Notes: generated from the letters alone by a model not told the origin. Shown: positions 23,199 through 62,900, counted from the first letter of the stretch. The stretch: DNA of 64,000 bases from an uncultured Hormoscilla sp. (GCA_963921275.4 OZ001293.3:4544001-4608000); one strand, 5' to 3'. Numbers and translations: made by a program.

Positions 23199-25493
23199 GG
23201 GTACATCTCAGTTAGGCGATGAGTAATTATACTTAGTGCTTGTATCCCTCAAAACGGTACATAATTTAGGCACTGTTGACCACCCTTGACCCATGAACTC
23301 CCAAAAGCAGGCTGAACTCCAGCAACATCTTGACGCGATTGCCGCGATTCTCTACCAGGAAGCCGACCCCACTGAACTCACCACCCTTGAAGGCATTGAG
23401 AAAAACGTTCGTGCGCTTGCCCAAGAACACGTCTGGCCTCAACTAGGAATTTTTTTATCAACACGGCGACTTCCCGCCGCACCGGAAAACAGCGCACCCT
23501 GACCAGTATCCTGGGCAAACTAACCCTCACCACTGCTCAAGCCCAACAACTGCAAGTTAAACCGGGAACTCGTTGGAGTCCGTATGTGGAAAAATGTTGT
23601 TGGGTCGTCAGTGCCAATGCCTCTTACCAGAGAGCCGATTTTTCGGGCCGTCCGCGGACCGTAAAAGATCTCGCGATGCTGACTGGGGTGAGCATCTCCC
23701 ACAGTACGCTCCAACGCTTTGTTCAACGAGAGGACTGGTCTGAGGTAGTGCGATTCGTTCCGGCATAAGCCAGTAGGTGAAAGTCGGGTCTGGCTCTATC
23801 AGCCAGATAACTCTGGTTATCATGGGGGTTAAATTCCCCTTCCCCAGGTACGGGGGTCGAGGGTACTACCGGTCGGAGGTGCTGCGGAGTCACATCACCG
23901 TGGTGTGGAGCGAGGACTTAAATGTAGGATAACTGGCAGCCTAAGCCGGTGACGCCGCTAGGAAAGATGTTAATGGTTAGAACAAGCGAACCTATGTAAA
24001 CCTCGTTAACCAGAACCAGCGGAAGAAGGCTTATGCGCTTGCCCAAAAAGGGAAATGGTAGTTAGTATTAGCTCTTGCCTCTGGCTAATAACGTACTCAA
24101 AGAACTCTCGGGGTATAGTAGGAACCTAAAAGCATCGCGAAATGATACCAGGGAACGGAGTAACCTCTCGTGAGCTGTCCCCATTTGGACAAGTTAGATG
24201 TAAAGCGCAAGCCACGAAGAGGAAGGATGTCCTAAGAAGCCAACGCCCGGGGTAATGCTTGTGGATATGCAGACGTAGGACGGATATGGTAAGACACCCT
24301 TGGGAAAAGTAACCTTAATGTCACAGAACTAGGAAGAAATTCCAAAAGTACGAATCTTGGATTCAAATCTTAGCCAGGTAAAGTTCAGAGCCCCTACGAA
24401 AAGCGGAAAGCAGAATGGGGAAGATGTTAGTAAAGAGCGGCGAGTATGGTTTGCTGAACTATCCTCCGCGAACCTTCCGGAGCTAAGTACTTAAACGGTC
24501 CAATAGGATTGACCATAAGGGGTAAAATTTCAAAGGGTAAGGGACAACGGGGGTAACCCCCAGTAATCCTACTGATGACAGCAGCTTACCAACCAGTAGC
24601 CGTGTGCGGTAAAAGTCGCTCTTCAGGTTTCGCTCTTGGAGGGTTGGTACGTGAGTACCAGCTCGACCCCGACCAAGATAGCTGAACCGATTCAGGAGCT
24701 CAGCTTGGATGGCGGCATGATTCGCCTTCGTACCGATTTTTCGGGCCGTCCGCGGACCGTGGAGGGTCAACCTGGTGAGTGGCGAGAATACAAAGCCTTA
24801 AATGTCCATGAGCAAGGCAGTGTGGCTTTCTTCAAGGATAATCAAGGGCTGCTTGAGTGGGTGAATGCCCAGCCCCTCGGGGCGCAGTTCACCGGTCTCG
24901 GAGATGGTCATGATGGGGTGTGGAACATTTTCAGTGGTATCGGGACACCAGAACAACGTATCGAAGTGCTCGATTGGTATCACCTAATGGAAAATGCCAA
25001 TAAGGTGCAAGGGACACCGGCTCAATCCGATTTTTCGGGCCGTCCGCGGACCGTGCAGATCCGATTTTTCGGGCCGTCCGCGGACCGTGCACTCCTGTGG
25101 CGAGGGGAGACCCAGAGGGCGATTAGTTATCTGCGCCAACAGCAATGTCGGGGAGCCACAGGGTTGATCAACTACTTGAAGCACCATCAGACGCGCATCA
25201 TTGACTACCAGACTAGCCCTCCTGGCGTCGGGCCGCTGCGCGAACGGGCAGGCAGCTCGGCACTCGATTGGCTCTGGTCGGGTTGAGTCCCTGGTGAAAC
25301 AAATTGGGTTAAGGGTGAAATTACCGGGGGCACAATGGCGAGCCGAGAATGTGCCGATTTTTCGGGCCGTCCGCAGACCGTAGGTGTTGAAGCATCGCTG
25401 TGCCTACCTGAATGGCGCATTAGTTGCCTAATCAGACTCAGTAAATCCACTTGTGCTGAGTAAATATACTCATCGCCTAACTGAGATGCACCC
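23199..25493 (+). mobile_element. ISKra4-family element carrying a group II intron and several short repeat insertions
   Basis: Inverted ends GGGTACATCTCAGTTAGGCGATGAGTA / TACTCATCGCCTAACTGAGATGCACCC; 8-bp target duplication AACTACTT; LGDGHDG, EVLDWYHL, IGSGRVES. Confidence 0.92.
23748..24674 (+). ncRNA. ORF-less group II intron (E), sense orientation within the ISKra4 transposase
   Basis: 5' GTGCGATTCGTT; DV-like AGCCGTGTGCGGTAAAAGTCGC (3' arm degenerate); removal restores EDWSEV-KIAEPIQE. Confidence 0.9.
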
Positions 25494-25896
25494 AACTACT
25501 TAGTGCGATCGCCTTTTGTCGGACAGACAGCAAATTTCCGATAAGTTCATTCCCTGATGATTACCTGGTATTTTTCGGGAACTGAGGCTAGGGAAATTCC
25601 CTGGGAGCATCCCAGATTTGCAGATGTATTAGAATTTGAGCCAATGTAGTACGATATGGGCTTTAAAATAACTACTTCCCGGAGAACTACTTCCCGGAGA
25701 ACCCGAGAATTTGTACTTTTATGCAAAAGTGAGATGCGCCCATTCCTATCCCCCAGCTGAAGGACGATCGTCCCAAAGGAATAATTTGCTTGCTCTTGAC
25801 AAATCATCCTGGTATTTACTATAATATTGTGTCAATCTCTAAGATATGGCTGAAAAAAGCCGGATAGGTCGCAGCTAATGGACTAGGAAATGTCAA

Positions 25897-27371
25897 ATGG
25901 GTATAGTATATAACATATTTTTCAAAGATAGTTTTTCTGTCAGAGGGCTGACAGGGACGGTTCAAAGGTCAGCCATCTCACAGGACTGCCAGTACACCGA
26001 ACAAGAGTCGCAACTCAGTTTAGAATCAACCCTGGGGGAATTGACACTTTACCAAGCAGAGATCGACTGCCAGCGCCCCGGCGCAGAGGTGACCCAGATC
26101 TTTGAAGCCAACCCCACGCTACCGGGTATCATTGTGACAGAGTCTGGTGAATTTGTGGGGATGATTTCCCGCAGGCGCTTCTTTGAACGCATGAGTCGTC
26201 CTTACAGCTTGGAGTTATTTTCCAAACGACCCCTGCTGACTTTCTACCAATTTGCTGAGAGTGAAATTTTAATGCTCTCACGGTCCACCTCAATTGTAGC
26301 AGCGGTGCAGCAGTCCTTAGCCCGCGAGCCCGAATTGATCTACGAACCGATCTTCGTGCAGCTAGAAACTGGGCCAACAGGCTATTGGACATGCATGATT
26401 TACTCTTGGCCCAGTCTGAAATTCATCAACTCACAACCCAAGCACTGCAACAATCAGAAGCCCAATTAACAGAAAAAGCCCAGCAACTAGAGGAGACTCT
26501 ATCTAAACTGAAAAAGACCCAAGTACAGCTGATTCAGACCGAAAAAATGTCCAGTCTAGGACAAATGGTTGCTGGCATTGCCCATGAAATCAACAACCCC
26601 GTCAGTTTCATTACTGGCAATCTGACTCACGTCAAAGGATACATGCAATACTTGTTACGCTTGCTCAAGCTTTACTGGCATCACTATCAGCAGCCCGTAC
26701 CTGAAATCCAGTCAGAAGTAGAAGCATCAGACCTGGATTTCCTCATGTCAGACCTACCACAAGTCCTGCAATCAATGCAATCCGGCGCAGACCGCATTCG
26801 TCAGATTGTCTTATCCCTGCAGAATTTTTCCCGCCTCGACGAAGCTGACTTGAAATCAGTTTATATTCACACCGGGCTAGAAAGTACATTGCTGATTTTG
26901 CAAAACCGACTGCAAAATCACAAGCTTCGCTGGAAATCTTCGGTAATTACCATTTACAAAGATTATGGTAACCTACCACAGGTAGAATGCTACCCCGGTC
27001 AGCTGAATCAGGTGTTTCTGAATCTGCTCAATAATGCGATCGATGCCTTAGAAATGAGAAAACCCTCCATCCATGAGATTCACATCGCCACCCAAGTATT
27101 AAACAGCAATTCTGTCGCAATCCGCATTGCCGACGATGGGTTAGGGATGACAGAGGAAGTATAAAAGAAGCTGTTTGACCCCTTCTTTACTACCAAGCCA
27201 CCAGGCAAAGGTACGGGTTTAGGATTGTCAGTTAGCTATCAGATAGTCGTCGAAAAACATGGCGGTCAATTGCAGTTTATCTCCTAGCCCGGTCAGGGAA
27301 CAGAATTTGTAATTTCCATTCCCATACGCCAGAAGTATCCTACATCCACCAATCTCAAATGCTGTGCTTGA
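25897..27371 (+). pseudogene. Sensor histidine kinase with CBS-like input, frameshift and stops
   Basis: AGIAHEINNP H-box, QLNQVFLNLLNNAIDA N-box, [17 protein letters not shown] after a stop. Confidence 0.85.
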
Positions 27372-27375
27372 AATT

Positions 27376-28290
27376 TTATACTAGAGAGACTGGGTAGATC
27401 CAGTCTGGGTAATTAGGAGCGCGATTTTCCATAATCGCCGTCAGTTTTTCTCGCAGTTTTTCCGTAATCGGTTTACTTGCGGGCAATTGATAATTTTCAA
27501 TCCGTTTTACTGGAGTAATCTTGGCAGCTGTCCCGCAGAGAAACACCTCGTCCGCAATCAAGAGTTCCGACTTATCCACCGGGCGTTCTGTGACTTTCAT
27601 CCCCAGGTCCGTCGCCATCTTAATAATACTATCTCTTGTGATTCCTTCCAGGATATCCTGTTCAAACCCAGGGGTAATCAGTGAGTCATTTATCACCAGA
27701 AAGATATTCATTCCCGTCGCTTCACAGACCTTTCCTTGAGAATTGATTAAAATCGCTTCATCAAAGCTAGACTCAAAAGCTTCCGTCTTAGCCAGAGAAG
27801 AGGTAATATAGGCTGCACTCAGCTTACCTCGGAGGGGAAAACTGCGGTCTTCTTGTCGATACCAAGAACTAATGCGACAGCTGACTCCCTCGGGGGACAA
27901 ATAATCTCCCAACTCCAACCCATAAACAAAAAAGTCTTTCTCAATCTTATGCAGTCTGGGAGAAATTCCCAAGCCTGACGTGTAGATGAAGGGTCGAATA
28001 TAGAAAGATTTTGTCGGCTGATTTTTCTTGACAAAATCAAGGATAACTGATTTAATTTTATCCGCTGGCAAGTCGTAGTGCAATAATTTAGCACTATTAC
28101 TTAACCTTTGGCAATGGCGGTCTAATCTGAACAGCAGTATTTGCTGCGGCTTTTGCGGATCTATTATCCCGCGCATCCCACCAAAGGCTCCAGTTCCATA
28201 ATGCAACCCATGGGTGGCAATGGAAATCTTAGCCTCAGCAAAAGGAACAAATTGGTTCTGAAAGTACGCAACTGGTAAAAAATTCTCCAT
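27376..28290 (-). CDS. ilvE: Branched-chain amino acid aminotransferase
   Basis: LHYGTGAFGG, ILEGITR, ADEVFLCGTAA. Confidence 0.93.
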   Translation of the reverse strand: MENFLPVAYFQNQFVPFAEAKISIATHGLHYGTGAFGGMRGIIDPQKPQQILLFRLDRHCQRLSNSAKLLHYDLPADKIKSVILDFVKKNQPTKSFYIRPFIYTSGLGISPRLHKIEKDFFVYGLELGDYLSPEGVSCRISSWYRQEDRSFPLRGKLSAAYITSSLAKTEAFESSFDEAILINSQGKVCEATGMNIFLVINDSLITPGFEQDILEGITRDSIIKMATDLGMKVTERPVDKSELLIADEVFLCGTAAKITPVKRIENYQLPASKPITEKLREKLTAIMENRAPNYPDWIYPVSLV

Positions 28291-28302
28291 GTCTGTTATT
28301 AG

Positions 28303-28704
28303 TTATTTTTGGCAAACCCATTTCCACAAGGGGTGAGTTGGACCCTGCTGGCGAATGCGGCAAACTCCCGTTTCCAGACGCTTTTGGTACTGGGGCGGCA
28401 TTCCCAGCAGGATGTTACGGCTTTGCCAGACTAGGACTGCTGTGGTCGTGGCAACACAAAAACCCAGACCAAGAGCTGGCACCAGGTTGTAAGACATGCC
28501 GTAGCGCACTGCTGCCCAAGTAAAATGCGATCGCAACAGGTCAATCTCCGATCGCAAACTCCAGAGACTCAGGGAACCGACAGGGAGCCATAGCAACCCG
28601 ATCGCCAACCACCTGAGAGCAACTGTCAGGTGGTGTAACCTTTGGACTTGCGCCTTAAAGATAGCATCCGTTGTCAGGGATGAAGTCTCTTTTGCAGTTT
28701 CCAT
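28303..28704 (-). CDS. Hypothetical membrane protein
   Basis: Two hydrophobic segments, QGPTHPLWKWVC end; lies between secF and ilvE. Confidence 0.7.
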   Translation of the reverse strand: METAKETSSLTTDAIFKAQVQRLHHLTVALRWLAIGLLWLPVGSLSLWSLRSEIDLLRSHFTWAAVRYGMSYNLVPALGLGFCVATTTAVLVWQSRNILLGMPPQYQKRLETGVCRIRQQGPTHPLWKWVCQK

Positions 28705-28714
28705 CTGTTTATAG

Positions 28715-29704
28715 TTATGCCTCATCAGAAGAGGCTAGTCCATCGGGTTGTTCGTCAGTAACCGCTGATGCCAATATAGCTTGACCCGTGCGTTCTCGCC
28801 ACCAAGCTAGCAGGGTACTAGCGATGAAGATACTAGAATAGGCACCTGAGATAAAGCCAACTATCAGGGCGAGGGCAAAGTATTTCAAGGTTTCGCCGCC
28901 GAACAGGAAGATGGACAATAATGGCAGTAGGGTAGTTAAGGTGGTATTGATAGACCGAGTCAGAGTTTGATTGACTGCATCATCTACCACTTGGTCGATG
29001 TGCTGGTCTGGGTGGAGTTTGATCGTCTCCCGCACCCGATCGTAGATCACGACAGTATCGTTAACGGAGAAGCCGATAATCGTCAGCAGGGCCACGACGA
29101 ACAAGCTATCCACTTCTAATCCCAGCACTAGACCCAACATAGAGAATACGCCTAGGGTAACAAAGACATCGTGGAACAGGGCCGCGAAGGCAAAAAAGGC
29201 GTAGTCTAGTTGGAATCTCCAAGTCAGGTAAAATGTAATGCCTCCGAAGGCGACTAGCAGGGCTAACAGACCAGAGGTAAACAGCTGTCGTCCTAGGGTC
29301 GGACCGACGGTGTCGATCTGGGTCTTTTGCGGGTCAAACTCCCCGATCTCCTCCTCTAGGGCTGTTTGCAGTTGGGTGCGTTCGGAAACATCTAAATCTT
29401 TGGTTCTAATGCTCAGGGCGTTACCTCGTTCGCCGACTATTTGGATGCTGCTATTGGCCAAACCCTGAGTTGCCATCACCCCTCGCACTGCGGCCAGGTC
29501 AATGGCCCGATCGCAGTTATTGGGTTGAGAACAGTCCCGTTCCAGTTGTAGCCTAGTACCGCCGACAAAATCCAGACTGGGACGCAGAGGTGCGCCGATG
29601 TCCGGTCGCGTCCAAGAAATGCCCATGGCCACCATCCCGGCCAGGACGATCGCCGCCGAAATTGACCACCAGAGCCCGCGTTGTTTGATAATCTTTAATC
29701 TCAT
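28715..29704 (-). CDS. secF: Protein translocase subunit SecF
   Basis: [33 protein letters not shown]. Confidence 0.97.
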
Positions 29705-35060: not shown

Positions 35061-35747
35061 AAACGCATCTTATTTTTGAAACGCTTACAGCCTACATTCA
35101 GCACGATAAAATGTATTGCGGGTAGTGGGTCACAAGTAGTGATTGCCTGAAACCCAGACTGTGGCCCCGGCTGGCCCCGGCAGGGACACAGGACCGCAGT
35201 CAAATCACTACGCTGACGCTCAGAATGACCACTACCTCCCCGCCAAATCTGTCTCCTACAGGCTAACGCTGCTGACGCTGCTGACGCTACAAGAGGCAGA
35301 GCCTCAAAGGTAGCATTCCGTGGCTCAGCCACGGAACCAATAAAGCCACGGAACCCTGGGGGGGCAACATGCAAGCCCAAACCCTTACTGGGTAACGATT
35401 TGGGCCCATAATCTCCAAAAATATATCTGCTGTTTTGGGCCGACAGACGACGTAGTTATAAGGGTTTGAGCTTCATGAAAATGAAAGAATGGTACTGATG
35501 CGACTGTATCAAGTCTAAGCCCATAGCCCTCAAACCCTTATCTAGTAAGGGTTTGAGGGCTCATGTCGCCCCCTCAGCACGGAACCAGTAACCTCCTGCT
35601 GCTTTTCTGTTTACCCTGTGTCCTGCAGAAACCGGGTCGCAGCCGAGGCCACAGGATAGGAGGGTGGGCGGTGCCCACCCTACAGTAATTACATTTAAAA
35701 ACTTACCAAAAAGTTTTTGAAATCATCAGTGATTGCCCGAATGAACC

Positions 35748-37401
35748 AGTCGGGGTCGAGCTAACTCTCACGAGCTAACCCTCCCATTCGGAACCGGACA
35801 TGCGACTTTCATCGCATCCGGCTACTGGGTAGATAGCCCTTTGTCATGGGTAGAATTACTCGGGATTACTCCCTTTGTTCCTCTCTTTATGTAATTTGGC
35901 CCCTTATGGTTAGTCTCAGACTAGATAAATGCCTAACTCCGGAAGGTTCGCGGGGGTTAACAGGACAAACCCATATAAACCGCTCTTTACTAACGTTGCC
36001 CTCGTTAATTAGGGACTTTACAAGTTTTACCCGGTTAGGTCTTTAGTCCAATATTAACTACCTAGGATTTCTCCTGGTCTAGAACATTTAAGGCTACTTT
36101 CACCCAAAGATTCTATCTATCACCAACCCACGTCAGCATATCCATAGGAGTTACCCCAGGCTTTAGCTTCTTGGGCTATCTCTCCCCTCATGGCTTGCGC
36201 TTTACATCTAACTTGTCCATATGAGGACAGCTCATGAGAGGTTACTTCGTTCCCTAATATCATTTCACGATACCTTTAGGCTCCTACTATACCTCAGTAA
36301 CTTTTCGAGTACGATGTTAGTCACGGGCTACGACTAACACTAGCTACTTTCCCTTTTGGGCCAGCGTAATAGCCTTATTCCGCTGGTTTAATATCATGAG
36401 GCTTACATAGATTTGTTTGTTCTAGCCTTGGGTATCTAACAAGCGCGGAGTCACTGGCTTAGGCTGCCAGCTATCCTACATTTAAATCCTCGCTTAGCAC
36501 CACGGCGATGTTACTCCGCAGCACCTCACGCGGTCACCCCCGTACTTGAGAGGAATTAGGGGTCGAGCTGGGAATCGCTCCCCAACCCTCCCGTTCGGAA
36601 CCGTGCATGCGACTTTCACCGCACACGGCTACTGGGTAGTTGGTCCTTGTCACTGGTAGGTAACTTCGGGATTACTCCCGTTGTCCCTCGTCTCATGAGA
36701 TTTGGCCCCTTGAGCTTATCCATCTCTGACAGGTTTCCCCCGAGCTGTAGGCATATTTAGGGCTACTTTTACCCAAGACTTCCAACTATCACCGACCGAC
36801 GTCTGCATATCCCAGGCGTTACTCCGGGCATTTGCTTCTTAGGCCATCTTTCCCACTCGCGGCTTGCGCTTCACATCTGACTGGTCCTTTAGGACAGCAC
36901 ACGAAGGGTTACTTCGTTCCCTGGTATCATTTCACGATGCCTTTAGGCCCCTACTTTTCCCCGGCAGTTATTTGGGTACAATGTTAGCCAATTCCCTAAT
37001 TAACACTAACTGCATTAACTTTTGTTCCAGCGCATTAAGCCTTATTTCGCTGGTTGGGTTTAACGAGGTTTACATAGGTTCGCTTGTTCTAGCCATGGAC
37101 ATCTTTCCTAGCGGAGTCACCGGCTTGGGCTGCCAGCTATCCTACATTTGAGTCCTCGCTTAGCACCACGACGATGTTATTTCGCAGCACCTCACGCGGT
37201 TACCCCTGTACCTGGGGAGGGGGAATTAAACCCCCATGATTACCAGAGTTACTAGTTTCCTAGGCCAGCGTTCCGTATATGACTACGTTAGGCTGGAACT
37301 CATCGCACGGGAATTTAACCCTCATGATAATCAGAGTTATCTGGCTAATGGAACCAGACCCGACTTTCACCATTACTGGCTTATGTCAGAACGAATCGCA
37401 C
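35748..37401 (-). ncRNA. ORF-less group II intron A1 (outer intron of twintron 1)
   Basis: DV (rc) AGCCGGATGCGATGAAAGTCGCATGTCCGGTTC; 5' GTGCGATTCGTT at 37401. Confidence 0.9.
36555..37308 (-). ncRNA. ORF-less group II intron B1 nested in domain I of A1
   Basis: 5' GTGCGATGAGTT, DV/DVI, ends CTCGACCCCTAAT; removal restores the domain I sequence seen in introns D and E. Confidence 0.9.
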
Positions 37402-38348
37402 AACCCGATTATTATCCTAAGATATATACAAACAGGAGTAGCGGGTCACAAGTAGTGATTTTAGCGCCTGAAACCCAGGACCGCAGTCAAATCACTATCG
37501 GAATGACCACTACCTTGGAATCCATGTTGCGGATATATAGCAGTCGGGGTCGAGCTAACTCTCACGAGCTAACCCTCCCATTCGGAACCGGACATGCGAC
37601 TTTCATCGCATCCGGCTACTGGGTAGATAGCCCTTTGTCATGGGTAGAATTACTCGGGATTACTCCCTTTGTTCCTCTCTTTATGTAATTTGGCCCCTTA
37701 TGGTTAGTCTCAGACTAGATAAATGCCTAACTCCGGAAGGTTCGCGGGGGTTAACAGGACAAACCCATATAAACCGCTCTTTACTAACGTTGCCCTCGTT
37801 AATTAGGGACTTTACAAGTTTTACCCGGTTAGGTCTTTAGTCCAATATTAACTACCTAGGATTTCTCCTGGTTTAGAACATTTAAGGCTACTTTCACCCA
37901 AAGATTCTATCTATCACCAACCCACGTCAGCATATCCATAGGAGTTACCCCAGGCTTTAGCTTCTTGGGCTATCTCTCCCCTCATGGCTTGCGCTTTACA
38001 TCTAACTTGTCCATATGAGGACAGCTCATGAGAGGTTACTTCGTTCCCTAATATCATTTCACGATACCTTTAGGCTCCTACTGTACCCCAGTAACTTTTC
38101 GAGTACGATGTTAGTCACGGGCTACGACTAACACTAGCTACTTTCCCTTTTGGGCCAGCGTAATAGCCTTATTCCGCTGGTTTAATATCATGAGGCTTAC
38201 ATAGATTTGTTTGTTCTAGCCTTGGGTATCTAACAAGCGCGGAGTCACCGGCTTAGGCTGCCAGCTATCCTACATTTAAATCCTCGCTTAGCACCACGGC
38301 GATGTTACTCCGCAGCACCTCACGCGGTCACCCCCGTACTTGAGGGGA

Positions 38349-40358
38349 AGTCGGGGTCGAGCTGTCCCTCGCGGGACAACCCTCCCTTTCGGAACCGTGC
38401 ATGCGACTTTCACCGCACACGGCTACTGGGTACTAGGCCCCTTTCACGGGTAGGATTACTAGGGATTACTCCCATTGTCCCTTACTACTTGCACGTCCGC
38501 CCCTTTCCTGGTTGGTGAGTGGAGCTGCCGGATAACCTTTAGTATCACCATTTAACACTCCGTTTTACCAGTTAAACATTCCTCAATCCTCAACTCGCTT
38601 TCGCTAACGCTGTAAATGGGCTTATGACATTTTAGAGCTACTTGTAGCAATAGTTTACTAGTATCACCGACCCGCGTCTGCGTATCCATAGGCATTACCG
38701 GCGTCTTCCGCATGCTCTTGTCCTGAAGGACTTTGGCGTCTTCCGCACACTCTTGTCCTGAAGGACTCGGTGTGCTCCAGACACCAAGGCATGCTCCAGA
38801 CACCGCCTAGGCATTAGCTTCTCGGGCCATCTCTCCCCTCATGGGCATGCGCTATGCGCTGCGCGCACGCTACGCGGACGCACATCTGACTTGTCCAAAT
38901 GAGGACAGCACCACGGGGGTTACTTCGTTCCTCTCGCTGAGGTTACTTCGTTCCCTGGTATCATTTCACGATGCCTTTAGGCCCCTACTTTTCCCCGGCA
39001 GTTATTTGGGTACAATGTTAGCCAATTCCCTAATTAACCTAAGTTGCGACCTATTAAAAAAAATATGAATTACCCACTTAGACTTTACAGATATTTGGGA
39101 TATTTCGTAGCTTTTGATACAAAATTATATTTTTTTTGTGCTAGACGGCGGGTTGGCTGTTTATAGGTTATAATGTACTAAAATAATAGTTAATTGCTAG
39201 GGGATGTAGATGATGGAAGATATGATTACAACAATTTTTGTTCTTTGTGATGAGCTACTAAAAGCGTTAAATATAAAAGAAGATCCACAAGTAAAAATGA
39301 ACAATGCCGAAGTGATGACAGTCGGATTAGTTGCTGCATATTTTTTCGGAGGACACCACGATCGCTCTTGTCAATTTATGGTCGAACACAAGTATATAAA
39401 AAATCTGTTAAGTAAAAGTAGGTTCAATCGTCGATTACACAATATTGACGAACCAATTTGGATGTTTTTCTTCCAAGTTATAGCTCAAACATTTAAAGAG
39501 CTCAATCCGTCAAGAATATATTCTTGATAGTTTCCCGGTGCCAGTATGTGATAATATTAGGATTGATAGATGCCAAATTTATAACAAGGAAGAATATCGA
39601 GGGTATATTGCCAGTAAAAAACGTTATTTTTATGGATTAAGAGTTCATATGTTGGTAAACAAAAATGGAAAGCCAATAGAATTTTATCTAGATCCTGGTA
39701 GTTATAATGATGTTAAAGTTTTGCAATCTTTTGGCTTTGACTTACCATCAAATTCAATAGTTTATGGAGATAAAGCTTATAATGATTATCAATTAGAGGA
39801 TTTACTAAAAGAGTCGTCAAGTATAATGTTAAAACCTTTGCGAAAAAAGAACTCAAAAAGAAAAGAATATTCTTGTTTTGAATATATACAAAAAGTAACA
39901 AGAAAACAAGTTGAAACCTGTTTTAGTCGAATCACCAATTTGTTTCCCAAGTCAATTCATGCTGTTACATCTAAGGGATTAGAGTTGAAAATAATTCTCT
40001 TTATCATAGCTTTTTGTATCCAATTTTTATAGGTCGCAACTTGAGTTAATTAACACTAACTGCATTAACTTTTGTTCCAGCGCATTAAGCCTTATTTCGC
40101 TGGTTGGGTTTAACGAGGTTTACATAGGTTCGCTTGTTCTAGCCATGGACATCTTTCCTAGCAGAGTCACCGGCTTGGGCTGCCAGTTATCCTACATTTG
40201 AGTCCTCGCTTGGCACCACGATGATGTTACTTCGCAGCACCTCACGCGGTTACCCCTGTACCTGGGGAGGGGGAATTAAACCCCCATGATTACCAGAGTT
40301 ACTAGTTTCCTAGGCCAGCGTTCCGTATATGACTACGTTAGGCTGGAACTCATCGCAC
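38349..40358 (-). ncRNA. Chimeric ORF-less group II intron (B-type 5' part, different 3' part) nested in A2
   Basis: 38941-40358 minus the IS matches B1; 38349-38931 is a different sequence type with its own DV/DVI. Confidence 0.85.
39037..40046 (+). mobile_element. IS982-family element; transposase 39210-40032 split by a frameshift
   Basis: Inverted ends ACCTAAGTTGCGACCTAT / ATAGGTCGCAACTTGAGT; TAATTA target duplication; DSFPVPVCDNIRI, YFYGLRVH, YGDKAY, RKQVETCFS. Confidence 0.92.
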
Positions 40359-41286
40359 GGGAATTTAACCCTCATGATAATCAGAGTTATCTGGCTAATG
40401 GAACCAGACCCGACTTTCACCATTACTGGCTTATGTCAGAACGAATCGCACAGTTCTCATATTAGTGTGATATGCTGTAGGATATTGCGTCGGGAGGGTA
40501 ACTCACCCCTCGCATAAGTTACTCGCCTTACTCCCCCCCCCTCGCAATGACAAGTCGGCGATTATTCTGTACCACATTAATTTGAGAAACGCTATACTTT
40601 CTGCAACAATAGTACGGATTGAGCGCTCGGGACATGGAAGATAGTTTGTATGACATCGTATCGATGCGTCAGTTTTCGGGATTGGGTATGGATGAGGTTC
40701 CTGACGAGACCAAGATATTGAGATTCCGGCATTGGCTGGAGGAACACAAATAGCAAAACTCGGTGGCGAAGCGGCAATCCTGAATTCTACCGAATACGAT
40801 CGCATCCCGGTTGACGACCCAAGAAGCCCCTAAGTCCGCCATACCCGATCGGAGCGGTAAAATAACCGAGATTTCCATTACATGACCATTAACAGGGACA
40901 ACTAACATTACTCGATCAATTTCGATACCAAGTATCAAAAGCAAATGAAAATCACCCTCATCATTATCCTATCCATACTGATATTTGTTGCCATTGTTTA
41001 TCTATGGGGCAGAACCTTACCCGCACACCAAGACCTACGGGTAGAAAGAACAATTAGCATCAATGCCCGCATATTAGATTGAGAAGAGCCGTCTTACGCA
41101 ACAATTTTGGTTGTTTGTAATGATCCTTTACAGAAATCCCAGATCCAGAGTCCGCTATCCATTTATCAGGACAGCCGTAGTGCCGGTCATAGAAAGAACC
41201 CAGGAAACCAGAGGGCTAAACAGCGAGAAACCGGGTTTCTGGCAGAAACCCGGTTTCTCAGTCCGTCGATGTTTGCCAGTGGTAGC

Positions 41287-46888: not shown

Positions 46889-46893
46889 TGATT

Positions 46894-47799: not shown

Positions 47800-48480
47800 C
47801 TGTAACTAAAGATAGCATTACTAGCTATCAACTACTCTGAAGGGCATTAATTGAACAAGCAGTTAAGAAATTTCGCCGCATTGTTAGCAATAGGCGGACT
47901 TTCCCGTGCCGCCCAATAATTGGATATAGGAGTTTGGGGGAGACTCCCGAGAACGCGAATGGAAGCAGAAGCGATTCTCGGCCTGGTGCCCAAATCAGAG
48001 AGTACCCATGCTTTTGATTTTGCTGCCAATCGTGCTACTGTGACTAATCTCCAACTCAGTCAGTACCAAATTATCCATTTTGCTACCCACGGACTCCTGA
48101 ATAGCGTCAATCCGGAACTTTCTGGGATTGTCTTGTCGATGGTGGACGAACGGGCAAACTCCCAGAATGGCTTTTTGCGTATGCATGATGTTTTCAACCT
48201 CGATCTTGCCGCCGACTTAGTAGTTTTGAGTGCCTGTAAAACTGGATTAGGGAAACAAGTGCGAGGAGAAGGATTAGTGGGATTAACCAGGGGATTTATG
48301 TATGCAGATGCGCCCCAGTATTAGTGAGTTTGTGGGATATAGACGATGCTGCGACTGCCGAAATGATGAAGAGATTCTACCGCTTGATGTTAAAAGAAAA
48401 ATTATCAGCAACGGAGGCATTAAGAGCAGCACAGCGGCAGATACAAACCGAAACCAAGTGGAAATCACCTTTTTGTATGC
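47800..48480 (+). pseudogene. CHAT domain C-terminal fragment
   Basis: IIHFATHG, ADLVVLSACKTGLG, GEGLVGLTRGFMYA, VSLWDIDD. Confidence 0.85.
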
Positions 48481-49236
48481 AGCGATCGCCTGTGGTTTCA
48501 GGGCGATCGCCTTTTGGTGGCATGCGATCGCCTCTGCTAAGTTCCCCCATCCTTGATAGCAGTTACCCAACTGATTATAAAATTCCGCCTGTTCTGGTTT
48601 AATGGCAATGGCTTTTTTATAATAGGCGATCGCCTCTTTTCTGCGGTCATACTCTTCCATAATTCTAGCCAATTTATAGTAAACTTCCGCACCGTTGACG
48701 TTAATGCTGATGACCTTTTCGTAGCAGGCGAGCGCCTGTTGGTAATGAGCGCATTCGCCTCTCGATAACGCTTTTCCTCCTTCAGCATCGCCGCCAATTT
48801 TTCATGGGCCGCTCCACTCCGGATCAGCGGTACCACTTGCTGGTGCGTCTCGCGCGGCCTCTAATCTTTTTCCCTGTTTTTCCAGGGCCCAAGCCAGGTT
48901 ATTATAAGCATCAAGATAATCAGGCTTCACTGCGAGCGCCTGTTTGTAGGCAGCGATCGCCTGTTCTCTTTTTCCTTGTTGCCAGAAGCTAGACCCCAGA
49001 TTATTATAAGCCTCATGGTAATCTGGCTTTATGGATATCACCTGTTGGAAATAGCCGATCGCCCGATCGTATTCCTTCGTCCGATAAGCAATAATTCCCA
49101 GCAGAAGCATAGCCTCTAACTGGTGAGGCTGCTGTTCTAGCATCGCCAAATAAACAGCCCTCGCTTTATCCATACGTCCGGCTTTGTAGTGACTCAAAGC
49201 CTCTCTTAACCAATCGTTACCTGCTTGCTGTACCAT
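48475..49236 (-). pseudogene. TPR-glycosyltransferase paralog 1, frameshifted and truncated
   Basis: MVQQAGNDWLREALSHY start; TPR fragments in three frames. Confidence 0.85.
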
Positions 49237-55588: not shown

Positions 55589-58500
55589 ATGGTAGTAGTG
55601 GATGCCTCCCTAGAAAACTACCAGCAGCTTATAGACGGCATCCGGCCTGGGGCCAAATCTTTTTTCTTAGACCTTCGGTCCGATGGCATCGAACAGATCG
55701 GCGAACTTCTCCGACAGCATCAAGAAACAGAGGTTCTGCACCTACTCTCCCATGGCAGCCCTGGCTGTCTGTATCTGGGAAACTCCCAACTGAGTTTAGA
55801 TACTCTAGGAGATTACGCTTCTACCCTGCAGAAGTGGAAAGTAAAACAACTCCTACTCTACGGCTGTAACGTCGCCGCCGGAGATGCAGGAGAGGAGTTG
55901 ATGACTAAGCTACAGGCCCTGACCGGGGCATCCCTCGCCGCCTCTACTACCCGGACAGGGGCAGCAGCCCGGGGCGGAAATTGGAGGTTGGAGTGGCGAA
56001 CTCCGGGGATGAAAACTCCCTTAGCATTGTCCGCAGAAGCTCAGATGGCCTATGGGGGCATATTGATCTCCCAGCAGGAGTATCAGGCCTTAAGGGCTCT
56101 CTATCAAAGCACCAATGGGGCTTCTTGGAGTAACAATACAGGCTGGCAAGACTGGAATTTCAACAGCCCAACTCCCCCCAATGATTCTGTTGTTAATGGT
56201 TGGCATGGAGTGACGGTAGCTAGCTCCCGGGTGATTAACCTCGAGCTGAACTTCAACCAACTGACTGGCAGCATCCCGACGGAGTTAGGGAATCTTTCCA
56301 ATTTGGAGTCTCTCTTGCTGTCCTTCAACCAACTGACTGGCAGCATCCCGACGGAGTTAGGGAATCTTTCCAATTTGCAGTTTCTCCAGCTGTTTTCCAA
56401 CCAACTGACTGGCAGCATCCCGACGGAGTTAGGGAATCTTTCCAATTTGGAGAATCTCCGGCTGTACTCCAACCAACTGACTGGCAGCATCCCGACGGAG
56501 TTAGGGAATCTTTCCAATTTGCAGTTTCTCCAGCTGTTTTCCAACCAACTGACTGGCAGCATCCCGACGGAGTTAGGGAATCTTTCCAATTTGGTATCTC
56601 TCGTGCTGTTCTCCAACCAACTGACTGGCAGCATCCCGACGGAGTTAGGGAATCTTTCCAATTTGGTATCTCTCGTGCTGTTCTCCAACCAACTGACTGG
56701 CAGCATCCCGACGGAGTTAGGGAATCTTTCCAATTTTATTTGGCTCCGGCTGGACTCCAACGAACTGACTGGCAGCATCCCGACGGAGTTAGGGAATCTT
56801 TCCAATTTGCGATCTCTCCAGCTGTTCTTTAACCAACTGACTGGCAGCATTTCCCAAGAGGTTCTAGATTTGAGTGCTGAGAAGCGATTGGAAAACCCCC
56901 CTTATGTTTTAACCGAGATTCCCTACGTCCAACTCTTGCTAGGTAATAACCTCAACATAAACATTAGCGCAGATTTCCGCGACATCAATAACAACATTAG
57001 TAGCTACGGCGCTAATGGTTTGCCAAACGGTTTAACCATTAACTCCACTACTGGGGTGATCAGCGGCACTCCTACTACTGAGGGCAGTTTTACCGTGACG
57101 GTAACAGCAACGGATAGGGCGGGAGGCCGGGGAGAAGATGAATTTAATATTACGGTATCGATTCCTCTCAATGCAAGTGATTACGACGCCCTTCGGGCTC
57201 TCTATAACAGTACTTCTGGGAATAATTGGAGGAAGAGGACAGGCTGGGATGTCAGCAGCCCAACTCCTCCCTCTGCTAGTGTTGTTAATAGCTGGCATGG
57301 GGTGACGGTAGTGGGCGATCGGGTGACGAAACTCTCCCTGTTCAACAACTCCCTGAGCGGTACGCTCCCCTCGGAGTTAGGCTCCCTCAGCAATTTGCAA
57401 GTCCTCTCCCTGAACTTCAGCTCCCTGAGCGGTACGCTCCCCTCGGAGTTAGGCTCCCTCAGCAATTTGCAAGAGCTCTGGCTGGACAGAAACTCCCTGA
57501 GCGGTACGCTCCCCTCTGAGTTAGGCTCCCTCAGCAATTTGCGAAAGCTCTACCTGCACAGAAACTCCCTGAGCGGTACGCTCCCCTCTGAGTTAGGCTC
57601 CCTCAGCAATTTGCAAGAGCTCTCCCTGCACAGAAACTCCCTGAGCGGTACGCTCCCCTCAACCTTAGGCTCCCTCAGCAATTTGCAAGAGCTCTCCCTG
57701 CACAGAAACTCCCTGAGCGGTACGCTCCCCTCAACCTTAGGCTCCCTCAGCAATTTGCAAAACCTCTACCTGGACAGAAACTCCCTGAGCGGTACGCTCC
57801 CCTCTGAGTTAGGCTCCCTCAGCAATTTGCAAGACCTCTACCTGTTCAACAACTCCCTGAGCGGTACGCTCCCCTCGGAGTTAGGCTCTTTCAGCAATTT
57901 GCAAGAGCTCTACCTGAACAACAACGACTTTCGCGGTACGATCCCCGACAGTATCAACGCTTTGTCAGCATCCAAACGATTGGAAAACCCTCCCTATGTG
58001 GAAATTCAAATTCCCGACGTCAATGCCTTAAGTGGTGAGAAATTCAACTTCAAGGTGGGCGGGAACTTCGGCGACCTCAACAACAACATTAGTAGCTACG
58101 GCGCTAATGGTTTGCCAGACGGTTTAACCATTAACTCCACTACTGGGGTGATCAGCGGCATTCCTACTATTCCTACTATTGATGGCAGTTTTACCGTGAC
58201 GGTAACAGCAACGGATGGGGTGGGATACCGGGGAGAGGATGAATTTAATATTACAGTATCGCGTCCCACTAGCTTCAACCTTTCTGATAGTTTCGCTCTC
58301 AATGGCAACTTTACCAATTTGTACATCGGTGACTTTAATGGGGACAATCATGATGATATCCTCCGTCAAGAAAAGGGCAGTTGGTCCAACGAGGATGCCT
58401 ATCGGACTGCTGAAGTCCTCTTATCCCAAGGTAACGGCAACTTTACCCGCACCACCCTTCCTGATAGTAGATCTCTCAATGGCAACTTTATCAATTTGTA

Positions 58501-59707
58501 CATCGGTGACTTTAATGGGGACAATCATGATGATATCCTCCGTCAAGAAAAGGGCAGTTGGTCCAAGGACGATGCCGTAAGGACTGCTGACGTCCTCTTA
58601 TCCCAAGGTAACGGCAACTTTACCCGCACCACCCTTCCTGATAGTTTCGCTCTCAATGGCAACTTTACCAATTTGTATGTCGGTGACTTTAATGGAGACG
58701 AAAAAAGCGATATCCTCCGTCAAGAAAAGGGCAGTTGGTCCAAGGACGATGCCGTAAGGACTGCTGACGTCCTCTTATCCCAAGGTAACGGCAACTTTAC
58801 CCGCACCACCCTTCCTGATAGTTTCGCTCTCAATGGCAACTTTACCAATTTGTATGTCGGTGACTTTAATGGAGACGGGAAAAGCGATATCCTCCGTCAA
58901 GAAAAGGGCGATTGGGATAACGATGCCATTCGGACTGCTGAAGTCCTCTTATCCCAAGGTAACGGCAACTTTACCCGCACCACCCTTCCTGATAGTTTCG
59001 AGCTCAAGGGCGACTTGACCAAGTTGTATATAGAAGATTTGGATGGTGATGACCGAGATGAGATTCTGGTTCAAAAAAAATTGACCCAAGAGGGTCTGTC
59101 CCGCCTCCTGAAGGTATTGTCCTCAAATGATGGGCGCAATTTTACCGAATCTCTGCTCCCTTCTGCGCTTCAGTTTTCCAGTCAAAGCGGGCAACTGTAT
59201 ATTGCCGATTACTCCGGCAGTGGGCAAAACAATGATGTTCTGGTTCAGCGTTCTGGAAATAACCAAGCGCTGCTAGGCAGCATTACCCTGGGGAGCAATG
59301 ACTACCTTCAAGGGGGAACAGGAAACGATTCCCTCAATGGGGGTAACGGAAACGACTGGATTCGCGGATACGGGGGCGACGATACCCTTTTAGGGGGCAG
59401 CGATAACGATACTCTCTATGGCGACGAGGGAGAGGATATTCTCAATGAGGGTAAGGGGCACGACATGCTTTACGGCAATTCCGGTAGTGATACTTTTGTC
59501 TTGGCCCGGGGCATGGGCGGGGATACCATCCAGGACTTTTCAGATGGTACGGACTTTATCCGGTTAGAAGGAGGTTTGAGTTTTGCTGATTTAGGAATTG
59601 ATTCTCAGAACGATTCGACTTCTATTAAGGTCAGTGCTTCTGGGGAACTGTTGGGGATTTTGTCGGGGGTTGATTCTAGTCTTATTGGTGCTTCTGATTT
59701 TGTTTAG
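55589..59707 (+). CDS. Secreted DUF4347 - LRR - Ig (He_PIG-like) - LRR - Ig - FG-GAP/VCBS - RTX protein
   Basis: LHLLSHGSPG/LLLYGCNVA, 24-aa LRRs (NQLTGSIPTELGNLSNL), GLPNGLTINSTTGVISGTPT, GDFNGD repeats, GGxGxD repeats. Confidence 0.93.
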   Translation: MVVVDASLENYQQLIDGIRPGAKSFFLDLRSDGIEQIGELLRQHQETEVLHLLSHGSPGCLYLGNSQLSLDTLGDYASTLQKWKVKQLLLYGCNVAAGDAGEELMTKLQALTGASLAASTTRTGAAARGGNWRLEWRTPGMKTPLALSAEAQMAYGGILISQQEYQALRALYQSTNGASWSNNTGWQDWNFNSPTPPNDSVVNGWHGVTVASSRVINLELNFNQLTGSIPTELGNLSNLESLLLSFNQLTGSIPTELGNLSNLQFLQLFSNQLTGSIPTELGNLSNLENLRLYSNQLTGSIPTELGNLSNLQFLQLFSNQLTGSIPTELGNLSNLVSLVLFSNQLTGSIPTELGNLSNLVSLVLFSNQLTGSIPTELGNLSNFIWLRLDSNELTGSIPTELGNLSNLRSLQLFFNQLTGSISQEVLDLSAEKRLENPPYVLTEIPYVQLLLGNNLNINISADFRDINNNISSYGANGLPNGLTINSTTGVISGTPTTEGSFTVTVTATDRAGGRGEDEFNITVSIPLNASDYDALRALYNSTSGNNWRKRTGWDVSSPTPPSASVVNSWHGVTVVGDRVTKLSLFNNSLSGTLPSELGSLSNLQVLSLNFSSLSGTLPSELGSLSNLQELWLDRNSLSGTLPSELGSLSNLRKLYLHRNSLSGTLPSELGSLSNLQELSLHRNSLSGTLPSTLGSLSNLQELSLHRNSLSGTLPSTLGSLSNLQNLYLDRNSLSGTLPSELGSLSNLQDLYLFNNSLSGTLPSELGSFSNLQELYLNNNDFRGTIPDSINALSASKRLENPPYVEIQIPDVNALSGEKFNFKVGGNFGDLNNNISSYGANGLPDGLTINSTTGVISGIPTIPTIDGSFTVTVTATDGVGYRGEDEFNITVSRPTSFNLSDSFALNGNFTNLYIGDFNGDNHDDILRQEKGSWSNEDAYRTAEVLLSQGNGNFTRTTLPDSRSLNGNFINLYIGDFNGDNHDDILRQEKGSWSKDDAVRTADVLLSQGNGNFTRTTLPDSFALNGNFTNLYVGDFNGDEKSDILRQEKGSWSKDDAVRTADVLLSQGNGNFTRTTLPDSFALNGNFTNLYVGDFNGDGKSDILRQEKGDWDNDAIRTAEVLLSQGNGNFTRTTLPDSFELKGDLTKLYIEDLDGDDRDEILVQKKLTQEGLSRLLKVLSSNDGRNFTESLLPSALQFSSQSGQLYIADYSGSGQNNDVLVQRSGNNQALLGSITLGSNDYLQGGTGNDSLNGGNGNDWIRGYGGDDTLLGGSDNDTLYGDEGEDILNEGKGHDMLYGNSGSDTFVLARGMGGDTIQDFSDGTDFIRLEGGLSFADLGIDSQNDSTSIKVSASGELLGILSGVDSSLIGASDFV

Positions 59708-59977
59708 TTACGGTAAGGCTGTTGTTTTCCCTGGGGGGCCTTTGACTGCTATTGGGGTGTGGTCTTGCGCCCGTTGGTAGGAGACAGTAGCCGGGCCAGT
59801 GAAGGGCCGGGTCTGTCCTATGGTAAAGCAGGAAATGTTACCAATGTCGCCGGTAACCAACACTTGAGTTATAATAAACAAACGTGCCACTCGTTCCGGC
59901 GTAAGTCAGAAATATGACGATAGTCGGGCTAGTATTACACCAGCACCTCTACAGAAAAATACAAGAGAAACCAAAAA

Positions 59978-62900
59978 ATGAAGCATAATACCAATGCCAA
60001 CACCATGGTAGTAGTGGATGCTTCCCTAGAAAACTACCAGCAGCTTATAGACGGCATCCGGCCTGGGGCCAAATCTTTCCTCTTAGACCTTCGGTCCGAT
60101 GGCATCAAACAGATCGGCGAACTTCTCCGACAGCATAAAGAAACAGAGGTTCTGCACCTACTCTCCCATGGCAGCCCTGGCTGTCTGTATCTGGGAAACT
60201 CCCAACTGAGTTTGGATGGGGTCGAGCCGGGAATCGCTTCCCGACCCTCCCTTTCGGAACCGGACTTGCGATTTTCACCGCATCCGGCTACTGGGTACTA
60301 GGCCCTTTTCATAGGTAGACTTAATAGGAATTACTTCCGTTAGCCCTTGCCGCCTGTCTTTTCTTCCCTTTCCTGGTTTAGCGAGTGGTTGTTCTGATAA
60401 CCGTTAGTATCACCATTTTCAAGTCAGTTTTACCAGTTATCCATACCTTATCCTCCACTTGCGTTTCGGATTAGTTCCGTGGCTTTTTAGGATTACTCAT
60501 TCCAGCAGCTTCCTAGTATCACCGACCCACGTCAGCGCTGGCTACCCAGCATCATCTACATTACTGTAGATGTTATCCCAGGAATTACCCCGGGCATTCG
60601 CTTCTTGGGCCATCCCTCCCCCCGTGGCTTGCGCTTAACATCTAACTTGTCCTGATGGACAGCACACGAGAGGTTACTTCGTTCCCTAACAACATTTCGC
60701 GATACCTTTAGGTCCACACTATACCCCGGGAGCTATTTGAGTACTATATTAGCCAGAGTCTAAAACTAATACTAGCTACCATTTCCTTTTTAGGCCAGCG
60801 CATATAGCCTTATTTCGCTGGTTCCTTATAACGAGGCTTGCACATGTTTGCCTGCTCTAACCTTGGATATCTTTCCTAGCGGCGTCACCGGCTTAGGCTG
60901 CCAGTTATCCTACATTTGAGTCCTCGCTTAGCACCACGATGATGTCGCTTCGTAGCACCGAGGACCGGTGTCACCCCCGTACCTGGGGGGAGGGGAATTT
61001 AACCCCCATGCGGTCAGAGTTCCCGGCTAATGAAACCGGGCTAGCGTTCCGTGTTTGACCACGTTAGGCTAGAACGAATCGCACAGATCCTCTAGGAGAT
61101 TACGCCTCTACCCTACAGAAGTGGAAGGTAAAACAACTCCTACTCTACGGCTGTAACGTCGCCGCCGGAGATGCAGGAGAGGAGTTGATGACTAAGCTAC
61201 AGGCCCTAACCGGGGCATCCCTCGCCGCCTCTACTACCCGGACAGGGGCAGCAGCCCGGGGCGGAAATTGGAAGTTGGAGTGGCGAACTCCGGGGATGAA
61301 AACTCCCTTAGCATTGTCCGCAGAAGCTCAGATGGCCTATGGGGGCATATTGATCTCCCAGCAGGAGTATCAGGCCTTAAGGGCTCTATACCAAAGCACC
61401 AATGGGGCTTCTTGGAGTAACAATACAGGCTGGCGAGACTGGAATTTCAACAGCCCAACTCCCCCCAATGATTCTGTTGTTAATGGTTGGTATGGAGTGA
61501 CGGTAGCTAACTCCCAGGTGACTCGCCTCCGGCTGTTCTCCAACCAACTGACTGGCAGCATCCCGACGGAGTTAGGGAATCTTTCCAAATTGGCGGCGCT
61601 CTTGCTGAACTCCAACCAACTGACTGGCAGCATCCCGACGGAGTTAGGGAATCTTTCCAATTTGCAGTTCCTCGAGCTGGACAGAAACCAACTGACTGGC
61701 AGCATCCCGACGGAGTTAGGGAATCTTTCTACTTTGCGACGTCTCTGGCTGGACTCCAACCAACTGACTGGCAGCATCCCGACGGAGTTAGGGAATCTTT
61801 CCAATTTGACAACTCTCCTTCTGAACTCCAACCAACTGACTGGCAGCATCCCGACGGAGTTAGGGAATCTTTCTAAATTGGCGGCGCTCTTGCTGAACTC
61901 CAACCAACTGACTGGCAGCATCCCGACGGAGTTAGGGAATTTTTCCAATTTGCAGTTCCTCGAGCTGGACAGAAACCAACTGACTGGCAGCATCCCGACG
62001 GAGTTAGGGAATCTTTCCAATTTGGTGCAGCTCTTTCTGTACTCCAACCAACTGACTGGCAGCATCCCGACGGAGTTAGGGAATCTTTCCAATTTGGTGC
62101 TGCTCTGGCTGTACTCCAACCAACTGACTGGCAGCATCCCGACGGAGTTAGGGAATCTTTCCAATTTGCAGTTTCTCTACCTGTCCGGCAACCAACTGAC
62201 TGGCAGCATCCCGACTGAATTAGGGAATCTTTCCAATTTGAAGAATCTCCGGCTGGGCTCCAACCAACTGACTGGCAGCATCCCGACGGAGTTAGGGAAT
62301 CTTTCTAATTTGCGACTTCTCTTGCTGTACTCCAACCAACTGACTGGCAGCATCCCGACGGAGTTAGAGAATCTTTCCTATTTGTGGGCGCTCTACCTGA
62401 ACAACAACCTCCTGACTGGCAGCATCCCCCAAGAGGTTCTAGATTTGAGGGGCTTAGTCTTAAAGCGATTGGAAAACCCCCCTTATGTTTTAACCGAGAT
62501 TTCGACGTCCAACTCTTGCTAGGTAATAATCTCAACATAGACATTAGCGCAAATTTCGGCGACATCAATAACAACATCAACAACTACACAGCTACCGGTT
62601 TACCAGGGGGCGTAACCATCAACAGTCGGGGAGTTATCAGCGGTACTCCTACTACCGCAGACACCTTTACCGTGACGGTAACAGCAACGGATAGGGCGGG
62701 ATACCGGGGAGAGGATGAATTTAATATTACGGTATTGACTCGTAATCCTCTCAATGCTAATGATTATGCAGCCCTTCTGACTCTCTATAACAGTACTTCT
62801 GGGGAGAATTGGGCGAACAGGACAGGCTGGGATGTCAGCAGCCGGACTCCCCTCTCTGCCGATGTTGTTAATGGCTGGCATGGGGTGACGGTAGTGGGAA

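Follow-up and report, generated by a model that had tools for sequence, protein, structure and literature searches.

Group II introns without open reading frames, with diverged exon-binding sites and two twintrons, in a 64-kb stretch of an uncultured Hormoscilla genome

The 64,000-nucleotide (nt) stretch of DNA analysed here, called the window below, comes from an uncultured Hormoscilla sp. (GCA_963921275.4 OZ001293.3:4544001-4608000). It holds six full-length group II introns that lack open reading frames (ORFs) and fall into four types (A, B, D and E), together with one intron 3' fragment, among genes that are cyanobacterial, e.g. a ferredoxin-dependent bilin reductase gene. The full-length introns measure 754-2010 nt as they lie and 754-994 nt without nested elements. 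Each type carries its own exon-binding sites (EBS1, EBS2 and a candidate EBS3), which face intron-binding sites (IBS1, IBS2 and IBS3) in the flanking DNA, and both copies of type A contain a copy of type B. The introns are very probably one ORF-less family with lineage-specific guides, in which B homes into its sisters and a presumed reverse transcriptase (RT) is supplied in trans. The introns, their guides and their target sites are as follows.

23748-24674, plus strand: intron E, 927 nt, ORF-less; EBS2 ACCAG at 24009-24013, EBS1 TGCCTC at 24076-24081, candidate EBS3 T at 24116.
23735-23747, plus strand: target site of E; IBS2 CTGGT at 23735-23739, a 2-nt gap, IBS1 GAGGTA at 23742-23747; IBS3 A at 24675.
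35748-37401, minus strand: twintron 1; the outer intron, A1 (900 nt in all), is divided into 37401-37309 (5' segment) and 36554-35748 (3' segment).
36389-36393, 36324-36329 and 36289, minus strand: A1 guides EBS2 TATTA, EBS1 AGCCCG and candidate EBS3 T, respectively.
35749-35826, minus strand: A1 match to Rfam RF00029, 46.4 bits.
37402-37414, minus strand: target site of A1; IBS1 CGGGTT at 37402-37407, IBS2 TAATA at 37410-37414; IBS3 G at 35747.
36555-37308, minus strand: inner intron B1 (754 nt), which interrupts domain I of A1 behind GGGTTAAATTCCC; RF00029 match of 45.2 bits at 36568-36633.
37056-37060, 36991-36996 and 36956, minus strand: B1 guides EBS2 AACCC, EBS1 GGGAAT and candidate EBS3 A, respectively.
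37542-40451, minus strand: twintron 2; the outer intron, A2, is divided into 40451-40359 (5' segment) and 38348-37542 (3' segment); RF00029 match of 46.4 bits at 37543-37620; EBS1 and EBS2 identical to those of A1, candidate EBS3 C at 38083.
40452-40464, minus strand: target site of A2; IBS1 AGAACT (3/6), IBS2 TAATA (5/5); IBS3 G at 37541.
38349-40358, minus strand: inner intron B2, 994 nt without the insertion sequence (IS) that splits it, at the same domain I site of A2 as B1 in A1; RF00029 match of 47.9 bits at 38350-38427.
60214-61084, minus strand: intron D, 871 nt, ORF-less; RF00029 match of 46.4 bits at 60216-60292.
60824-60828, 60756-60761 and 60721, minus strand: D guides EBS2 TAAGG, EBS1 AGACTC and candidate EBS3 T, respectively.
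61085-61097, minus strand: target site of D; IBS1 GGATCT (5/6), IBS2 TCCTA (4/5); IBS3 A at 60213.

Six matches to RF00029, the Rfam model for domains V and VI, exceed the gathering score (43.1-47.9 bits vs 40), all on the minus strand, at 19068 (the 3' fragment), 35749 (A1), 36568 (B1), 37543 (A2), 38350 (B2) and 60216 (D). A looser Rfam search of the window (E<=1) gave no further domain V/VI match and left intron E unmatched; blastn self-comparison of the window revealed E, at about 23.8-24.7 kb on the plus strand, as the seventh member of the set. All six full-length copies begin 5' with GTGCG, and GTGCGAT is found at +23748, -61084, -40451, -40358, -37401 and -37308. No copy contains an RT or maturase in domain IV, and all are too short for an RT ORF, which makes them ORF-less derivatives. 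Because no Rfam D1-D4 model matches in the window, at the gathering score or at E<=1, class assignment rests on indirect features. The domain V sequences resemble plastid intron models at scores below threshold only, and the stem-less EBS2 described below is expected for IIB introns, in a description applied to a Trichodesmium intron (Pfreundt and Hess 2015, PMC4649490). Relatives were sought by scanning genome contigs with a 25-nt degenerate domain I pattern, which gave at least two loci; the nearest among those listed, L001 and L002, both belong to Hormoscilla metagenome-assembled genomes (MAGs) and are 70-81% identical to the window introns. L001 is a full intron. L002 (2928-3197, minus strand, Hormoscilla GUM202) is a 5' fragment of about 270 nt that breaks off shortly after EBS2, where unrelated sequence takes over. 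The genome from which the window comes is not represented among the listed loci. A blastn comparison of intron D with a plasmid collection gave no match.

Alignment of five sequences shows a conserved core interrupted by two short hypervariable blocks, EBS1 and EBS2. The EBS1 core consists of the six variable nt directly 5' of TG[G/A]CTAA, in the terminal loop of helix 5, and EBS2 of the five variable nt in CRTNA-NNNNN-AACCAGC, unpaired and about 65 nt upstream of EBS1. The EBS1 hairpin is a terminal stem-loop that occupies an equivalent block of alignment columns in every type. A five-helix model was drawn for this region as aligned in A1, A2, B1, D, E and one relative: 96.9% of 162 cells are paired and both-sided changes occur in 7/27 pairs, values that 0/500 shuffles reach, and pairing falls to 24-47% in a control in which helix partners were slid by 1-3 columns. 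RNAalifold independently predicts the terminal EBS1 hairpin and leaves EBS2 unpaired. An initial annotation of this DNA had raised the objection that the hairpin might not map to the EBS1-bearing subdomain; this objection falls away.

Guides and target sites were compared with IBS1 taken as positions -1 to -6 and IBS2 as -9 to -13 relative to the insertion site, with G-U pairs allowed and a score out of 11. Every loop and exon word quoted in the initial annotation was found where it had been placed. Intron E has the loop TCTTGCCTCTG at 24073-24083, whose core TGCCTC pairs with GAGGTA at 6/6 with one G-U; in A1, AGCCCG pairs with CGGGTT, again at 6/6 with one G-U; in B1 and B2, GGGAAT forms six Watson-Crick pairs with ATTCCC (6/6); and in D, AGACTC pairs with GGATCT at 5/6, one G-U being within that count. 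The poor match that had been reported for A2 is likewise borne out (EBS1 3/6 with its own exon). EBS2 pairs with its own site at 5/5 in A1, A2, B1, B2 and E and at 4/5 in D, so that the totals are 11 for A1, B1, B2 and E, 9 for D and 8 for A2. The two relatives add two further EBS types to the four among the six window copies: L001 carries another guide pair and scores 6/6 (two G-U) plus 5/5, i.e. 11/11, and EBS2 of L002 pairs at 5/5. Across copies, EBS1 reaches at least 5/6 in 6/7 of those having EBS1, EBS2 reaches 5/5 in 7/8, and the fixed register holds in 8/8 copies, two of them from other genomes. The same register, EBS1 with -1 to -6 and EBS2 with -9 to -13, is given for the retargeting of intron TeI3c in the parts of that work consulted (Mohr et al. 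2013, PMC3706431).

Since the words are short (6 and 5 nt), G-U pairs were allowed, and D and A2 are imperfect, it could be supposed that the matches between loops and exons arose by chance. The figures speak against this. Guides of one type score 2-8 of 11 against the site of another. With EBS1 alone, for five types, the diagonal sum is 29/30 vs a mean of 16.4 over 120 permutations, and the true assignment alone (1/120) reaches 29; with EBS1 and EBS2 together the diagonal sum is 53/55 and the best other of 120 assignments gives 46. As a background, all 127,974 13-mers of the window were scored against each guide set. The probability of the own-site score at a random window site is 7.8e-6 for A1, 5.5e-5 for B, 1.6e-5 for E and 3.9e-5 for L001, the four types with perfect matches, and 2.3e-3 for D and 0.0125 for A2; for the A guides, the sole 11/11 site among the 127,974 positions is that of A1 itself. 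Together with a register that is constant in all eight copies, including the two from other genomes, these values leave accidental matching hardly credible, and the background and permutation tests reject it. The other objection raised in the initial annotation, that complementarity between loop and exon might be no better than chance, thus falls away too, and its proposal of a family of related introns with diverged EBS, each matched to its own site, is supported. EBS2, the fixed register, the candidate EBS3 and the twintron anatomy are additions to what had been noted there.

The initial annotation had further suggested that A2, given its poor match, arrived by another route. This is probably wrong: the site of A2 has IBS2 at 5/5 in the correct register and scores 8/11 overall (P = 0.0125), and because IBS2 is perfect at that register, a guided ectopic insertion at a partly matching site is the likelier origin. 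Poorly matched copies in Thermosynechococcus elongatus have been described as products of ectopic retrotransposition, a description that A2 fits (Mohr, Ghanem, Lambowitz 2010, PMC2882425).

The insertion contexts are non-essential DNA. Intron E sits in sense and in frame in a remnant of an ISKra4-family transposase gene; the halves of its host ORF match the NCBIfam ISKra4 profile at 53-159 and 175-369, below the full-length cutoff, and a Pfam search of the E host ORFs found no family. Intron D is antisense within a DUF4347/leucine-rich repeat (LRR) gene and separates the N-terminal part of that gene from later parts. The surroundings of A1 and A2 are poor in ORFs, and B is housed by another intron. 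These contexts bear on a second explanation of the complementarity, namely that exon and EBS co-evolved in place under selection for splicing after vertical inheritance, with no RNA-guided insertion. Splicing, and not only mobility, is indeed described as dependent on EBS-IBS pairing (Mohr et al. 2013, PMC3706431). However, no insertion site lies in an intact host gene on the sense strand: the gene around D is broken and D is antisense to it, E, with its dead domain V, sits in what is left of an IS, A is in ORF-poor DNA and B is within an intron. Moreover, the near-identical A1 and A2 occupy unrelated sites. Splicing selection without guided insertion is therefore very improbable as the source of the matches.

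Around intron E, a 23-nt GC-rich word, TTTTCGGGCCGTCCGCGGACCGT, occurs six times at <=3 mismatches (0 expected) in the window, at 23640-25381 and 9836-9858. Five of these copies are in or beside the ISKra4 host remnant, where the open frame reads DFSGRPRTV, and the word looks like a small repeat element peppering that remnant. Around intron D, 55589-59707 and 59933-63994 are adjacent paralogous giant surface-protein genes (DUF4347, LRR, He_PIG, FG-GAP and RTX repeats). The first paralog is intact (1372 aa); the second is broken by the antisense D and further split downstream into overlapping ORFs.

The intact paralog at 55589 also bears on the 3' ends of the introns. Compared with it, the inserted DNA in D is exactly 61084 to 60214, two nt past the Rfam model end, and E preserves its host reading frame only with an intron end at 24674. 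The Rfam model ends would give AC or AT; the D paralog and the E frame move the ends 1-2 nt on, to CC, CT or AT. The equivalent 3' end, eight nt after the bulged A, was set in all copies, which makes the base at +1 G in A1 and A2, T in B1 and B2, A in D and E, and G in L001. As long as the Rfam 3' ends were used, consistent pairing with +1 was seen in no column of the alignment. With the ends reset, the column at A1 position 359 pairs with +1 in 7/7 copies, six of them by Watson-Crick pairs, yet 10/30 label permutations also give such a column. It lies about 30 nt 3' of the EBS1 hairpin and reads U, C, A, A, U, U and C in A1, A2, B1, B2, D, E and L001, respectively. This place agrees with that of EBS3 in TeI3c, which is described as lying downstream of EBS1 (Mohr et al. 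2013, PMC3706431). Each lineage probably has its own single-nucleotide EBS3, for which the column at A1 position 359 is a candidate. A gamma-gamma' column in J2/3 likewise pairs with the last intron base in 7/7 copies; 8/10 label permutations succeed too, so that it lends little support to the 3' ends.

Type B is set apart by where its target lies. The target word, GGGTTNNATTCCC, has six exact matches in the window vs 0.07 expected, and all six are one equivalent domain I hairpin, occupied by B in A1 and A2 and empty in D (60993-61005), E, B1 and B2. It had been claimed that this word also occurs in domain I of A, D and E; exact matches are there, and additionally in B1 and B2. The domain I of L002 reads GGGTTCAATTCCC followed by T, a full match to the B guides including the candidate +1 base; this site is empty. 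Both A copies hold B in domain I in the same orientation, and each inner intron starts directly after GGGTTAAATTCCC, 93 nt into the outer one.

This arrangement could also be explained if one ancestral twintron A(B) had been duplicated as a DNA segment, in tandem or segmentally, so that B homed into A no more than once. The two twintrons lie 141 nt apart on one strand (minus), A1 and A2 are identical at 895/900 positions, the guide-bearing 5' 386 nt of B1 and B2 agree at 381/386, and the IBS1 match of A2 is poor (3/6), all of which would suit a duplication. On the other hand, the flanks of A1 and A2, 5' and 3', are unrelated save for the IBS2 word, and the site of A2 has this word in the exact register (5/5). 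B1 and B2 agree outside their 5' part at only 269/368 positions, with 240 gap columns, and compensatory changes distinguish their domain VI stems; had an A(B) unit been duplicated, B1 and B2 should resemble each other as closely as A1 and A2 do. Two separate insertions of B into fresh A copies are therefore the simpler reading, and a duplicated segment is unlikely. The claim that B is aimed at its sister introns is thus sustained by the presence of B in domain I of both A copies, with B copies that have diverged inside near-identical A copies.

The twintrons also carry later damage, which includes the following element.

39031-40046, plus strand: IS982-family element of about 1009 bp, the interval including one copy of the 7-bp duplication TTAATTA as well; it interrupts the EBS1 hairpin of B2 immediately 5' of GGGAAT.

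The element is antisense to B2, which it splits, and is flanked by the TTAATTA duplication. Its transposase ORF (39538-40032) matches NCBIfam IS982 at 4.1e-42 and Pfam DDE_Tnp_1_3, and covers only 81-242 of the profile. At about 38700-38900 (minus strand), the domain II/III region of B2 has short tandem duplications and a duplicated GGAACGAAGTAACC word, neither of which is found in B1. The IS982 element and small duplications have inactivated A2 and B2. Intron E has a degenerate domain V, with a mutated 3' strand and the lower helix lost. A remnant of a further intron, outside the range covered by the initial annotation, is the following.

19055-19203, minus strand: intron 3' fragment with domains V and VI only; RF00029 match of 43.1 bits at 19068-19133, also found by blastn; B1-like domain VI.

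No 5' intron part was found upstream of this fragment, which ends with ...CCCCTAAT; another piece of an ISKra4 transposase gene, the second in the window (19814-20260, plus strand, profile 269-370), is located at a distance of about 600 nt.

Altogether, the pairing data, the register and the twintrons can be brought together in one scheme. Each lineage (A, B, D, E) would use its own EBS1 (6 nt, in a terminal loop) and EBS2 (5 nt, unpaired) in domain I. The excised RNA would find its DNA site by pairing EBS1 with -1 to -6, EBS2 with -9 to -13 and EBS3 with +1, and would then reverse-splice into it, to be copied into DNA by an RT. Because no copy encodes a protein, this enzyme must come from an ORF-carrying relative elsewhere; we infer a shared trans-acting RT encoded in another part of the genome. 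A1, B1, B2 and E, with perfect matches, would be products of retrohoming, and D (9/11) and A2 (8/11) of ectopic retrotransposition. The guides of B match the conserved domain I hairpin of its sisters, so that B would home into A and create twintrons. The RNA of A would fold only once B is spliced out, and since A would move only after that, each new A copy would arrive empty and open to reinvasion. Several copies would by now be dead, namely E, with its broken domain V, and B2 and A2, with the IS982 element in the B2 EBS1 hairpin.

Several observations weigh against this scheme. No RVT, RT or maturase domain was found in the 90 ORFs of the window (31 + 59) or in the 14 ORFs of L001 and L002. 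The sample is small, with eight intron-site pairs (six in the window and two from the listed loci) and six guide types. The adopted 3' ends lack the usual AY. B is absent from four sites that match its guides perfectly at IBS1 and IBS2 (those in D, E, B1 and B2), which means that B targeting is not simply directed at any sister. A candidate account of these sites can be read from the alignment: the A at the putative EBS3 of B would need a T at +1, which is present only in A, and the empty sites have C. If the column is EBS3, the lack of pairing between this A and the C in D, E and B would explain the four empty sites; the account depends on a column that is statistically insecure (10/30 permutations). 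With these points counted, an ORF-less family with lineage-specific guides, homing of B into its sisters and a presumed RT supplied in trans is still considered highly probable.

A bolder proposal is tentative and, on balance, doubtful. B may be a dedicated 'intron of introns', whose exact targets in the 64 kb are only the domain I hairpin of its own family, and a single EBS3-IBS3 pair, in which the A of B faces T at +1 in A but C at that position in D, E and B, may select the sister and spare B itself. The nearest relatives listed are in Hormoscilla MAGs and not in a thermophile; if the host is mesophilic, a choice of sites guided almost purely by RNA, with a trans-acting RT, would not be restricted to high temperature.

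Away from the introns, two further loci in the window may hold divided genes. The ORF at 11255-11764 (within 10555-11764, plus strand) matches only the C-terminal third of cytochrome P450 (profile 297-438), and Pfam recognises nothing in the ORF that directly precedes it; this region may be a split or decayed gene. At 47920-48599 (plus strand), two ORFs that differ in frame share a CHAT domain between them (profile 99-223 and 226-274), adjoining several TPR-repeat genes on the opposite strand.

The family would provide a second, independent and more diverged natural example of group II introns that escape the saturation of their target sites, in a cyanobacterial lineage other than Thermosynechococcus, the escape route being altered guide sequences and the use of sister introns as safe places to insert. 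What is established about group II intron mobility is left unchanged. If true, the discrimination at +1 would show how a hyperparasitic intron avoids destroying its own copies, and a mesophilic host would contrast with the high-temperature restriction proposed for T. elongatus. Targetron design could draw on the six natural sets of guides (EBS1/EBS2, candidate EBS3), which come with matched targets and are borne by a compact ribozyme of 750-930 nt. A literature search combining Hormoscilla and group II introns found no paper.

Introns that enter introns have precedents. A plant mitochondrial intron has reportedly been 'invading itself'. The targets of the nested introns of Methanosarcina acetivorans are intron ORFs. 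Repeated homing of introns into other introns is described for Methanosarcina (Zimmerly and Semper 2015, PMC4424553); unlike the present case, the host there is an archaeon and nesting reaches up to five levels, according to the same account. In Cyanobacteriota, CL-type introns are described as expanded, with more than 100 group II introns in some species (PMC8919778). Closer in arrangement is the Tery_4732 twintron of Trichodesmium erythraeum, which, as described, likewise carries its inner intron within domain 1 of the outer one, starts 5' with GUGCGAUUC, and has a stem-less EBS2 and an EBS3, the last a candidate only in the introns studied here (Pfreundt and Hess 2015, PMC4649490). In that twintron, however, a conserved protein gene is interrupted and both introns are described with ORFs for intron-encoded proteins, whereas the window has two such twintrons, each in non-coding DNA and with both introns ORF-less. 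Targetrons and thermotargetrons, in which one ribozyme is reported to be redirected to new DNA targets by changes in EBS1, EBS2 and EBS3 (Mohr et al. 2013, PMC3706431), are parallel in principle; the variants described here, in contrast to those engineered ones, are natural and known from sequence alone.

The nearest counterpart is T. elongatus, for which 28 related introns, 17 of them ORF-less, are reported in six families defined by EBS1, EBS2 and EBS3, with copies mostly at well-matched and some at poorly matched sites (Mohr, Ghanem, Lambowitz 2010, PMC2882425). One family is described there as homing into sister introns to give twintrons and another into an IS element (PMC2882425). Compared by description, the window resembles the TeI3/TeI4 introns of that species in its several related cyanobacterial copies, ORF-less, in families defined by EBS and partly degenerate (PMC2882425), and in insertion into introns and IS, here B into A twice and E into the ISKra4 remnant. 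The general pattern of EBS-diverged families, ORF-less copies and homing into sisters and IS is thus one already described for T. elongatus in 2010. As far as that description goes, the systems differ in four respects: the target here is a domain I ribozyme hairpin of an ORF-less sister, and there the start of the RT ORF in domain IV; identity between types is about 60-79% here vs the 85-100% reported there; no RT-encoding member is visible in the window; and the nearest relatives among the listed matches are Hormoscilla MAGs. It is the ribozyme-hairpin target, the much more diverged lineages and the Hormoscilla MAG relatives that set the present introns apart from the T. elongatus case.

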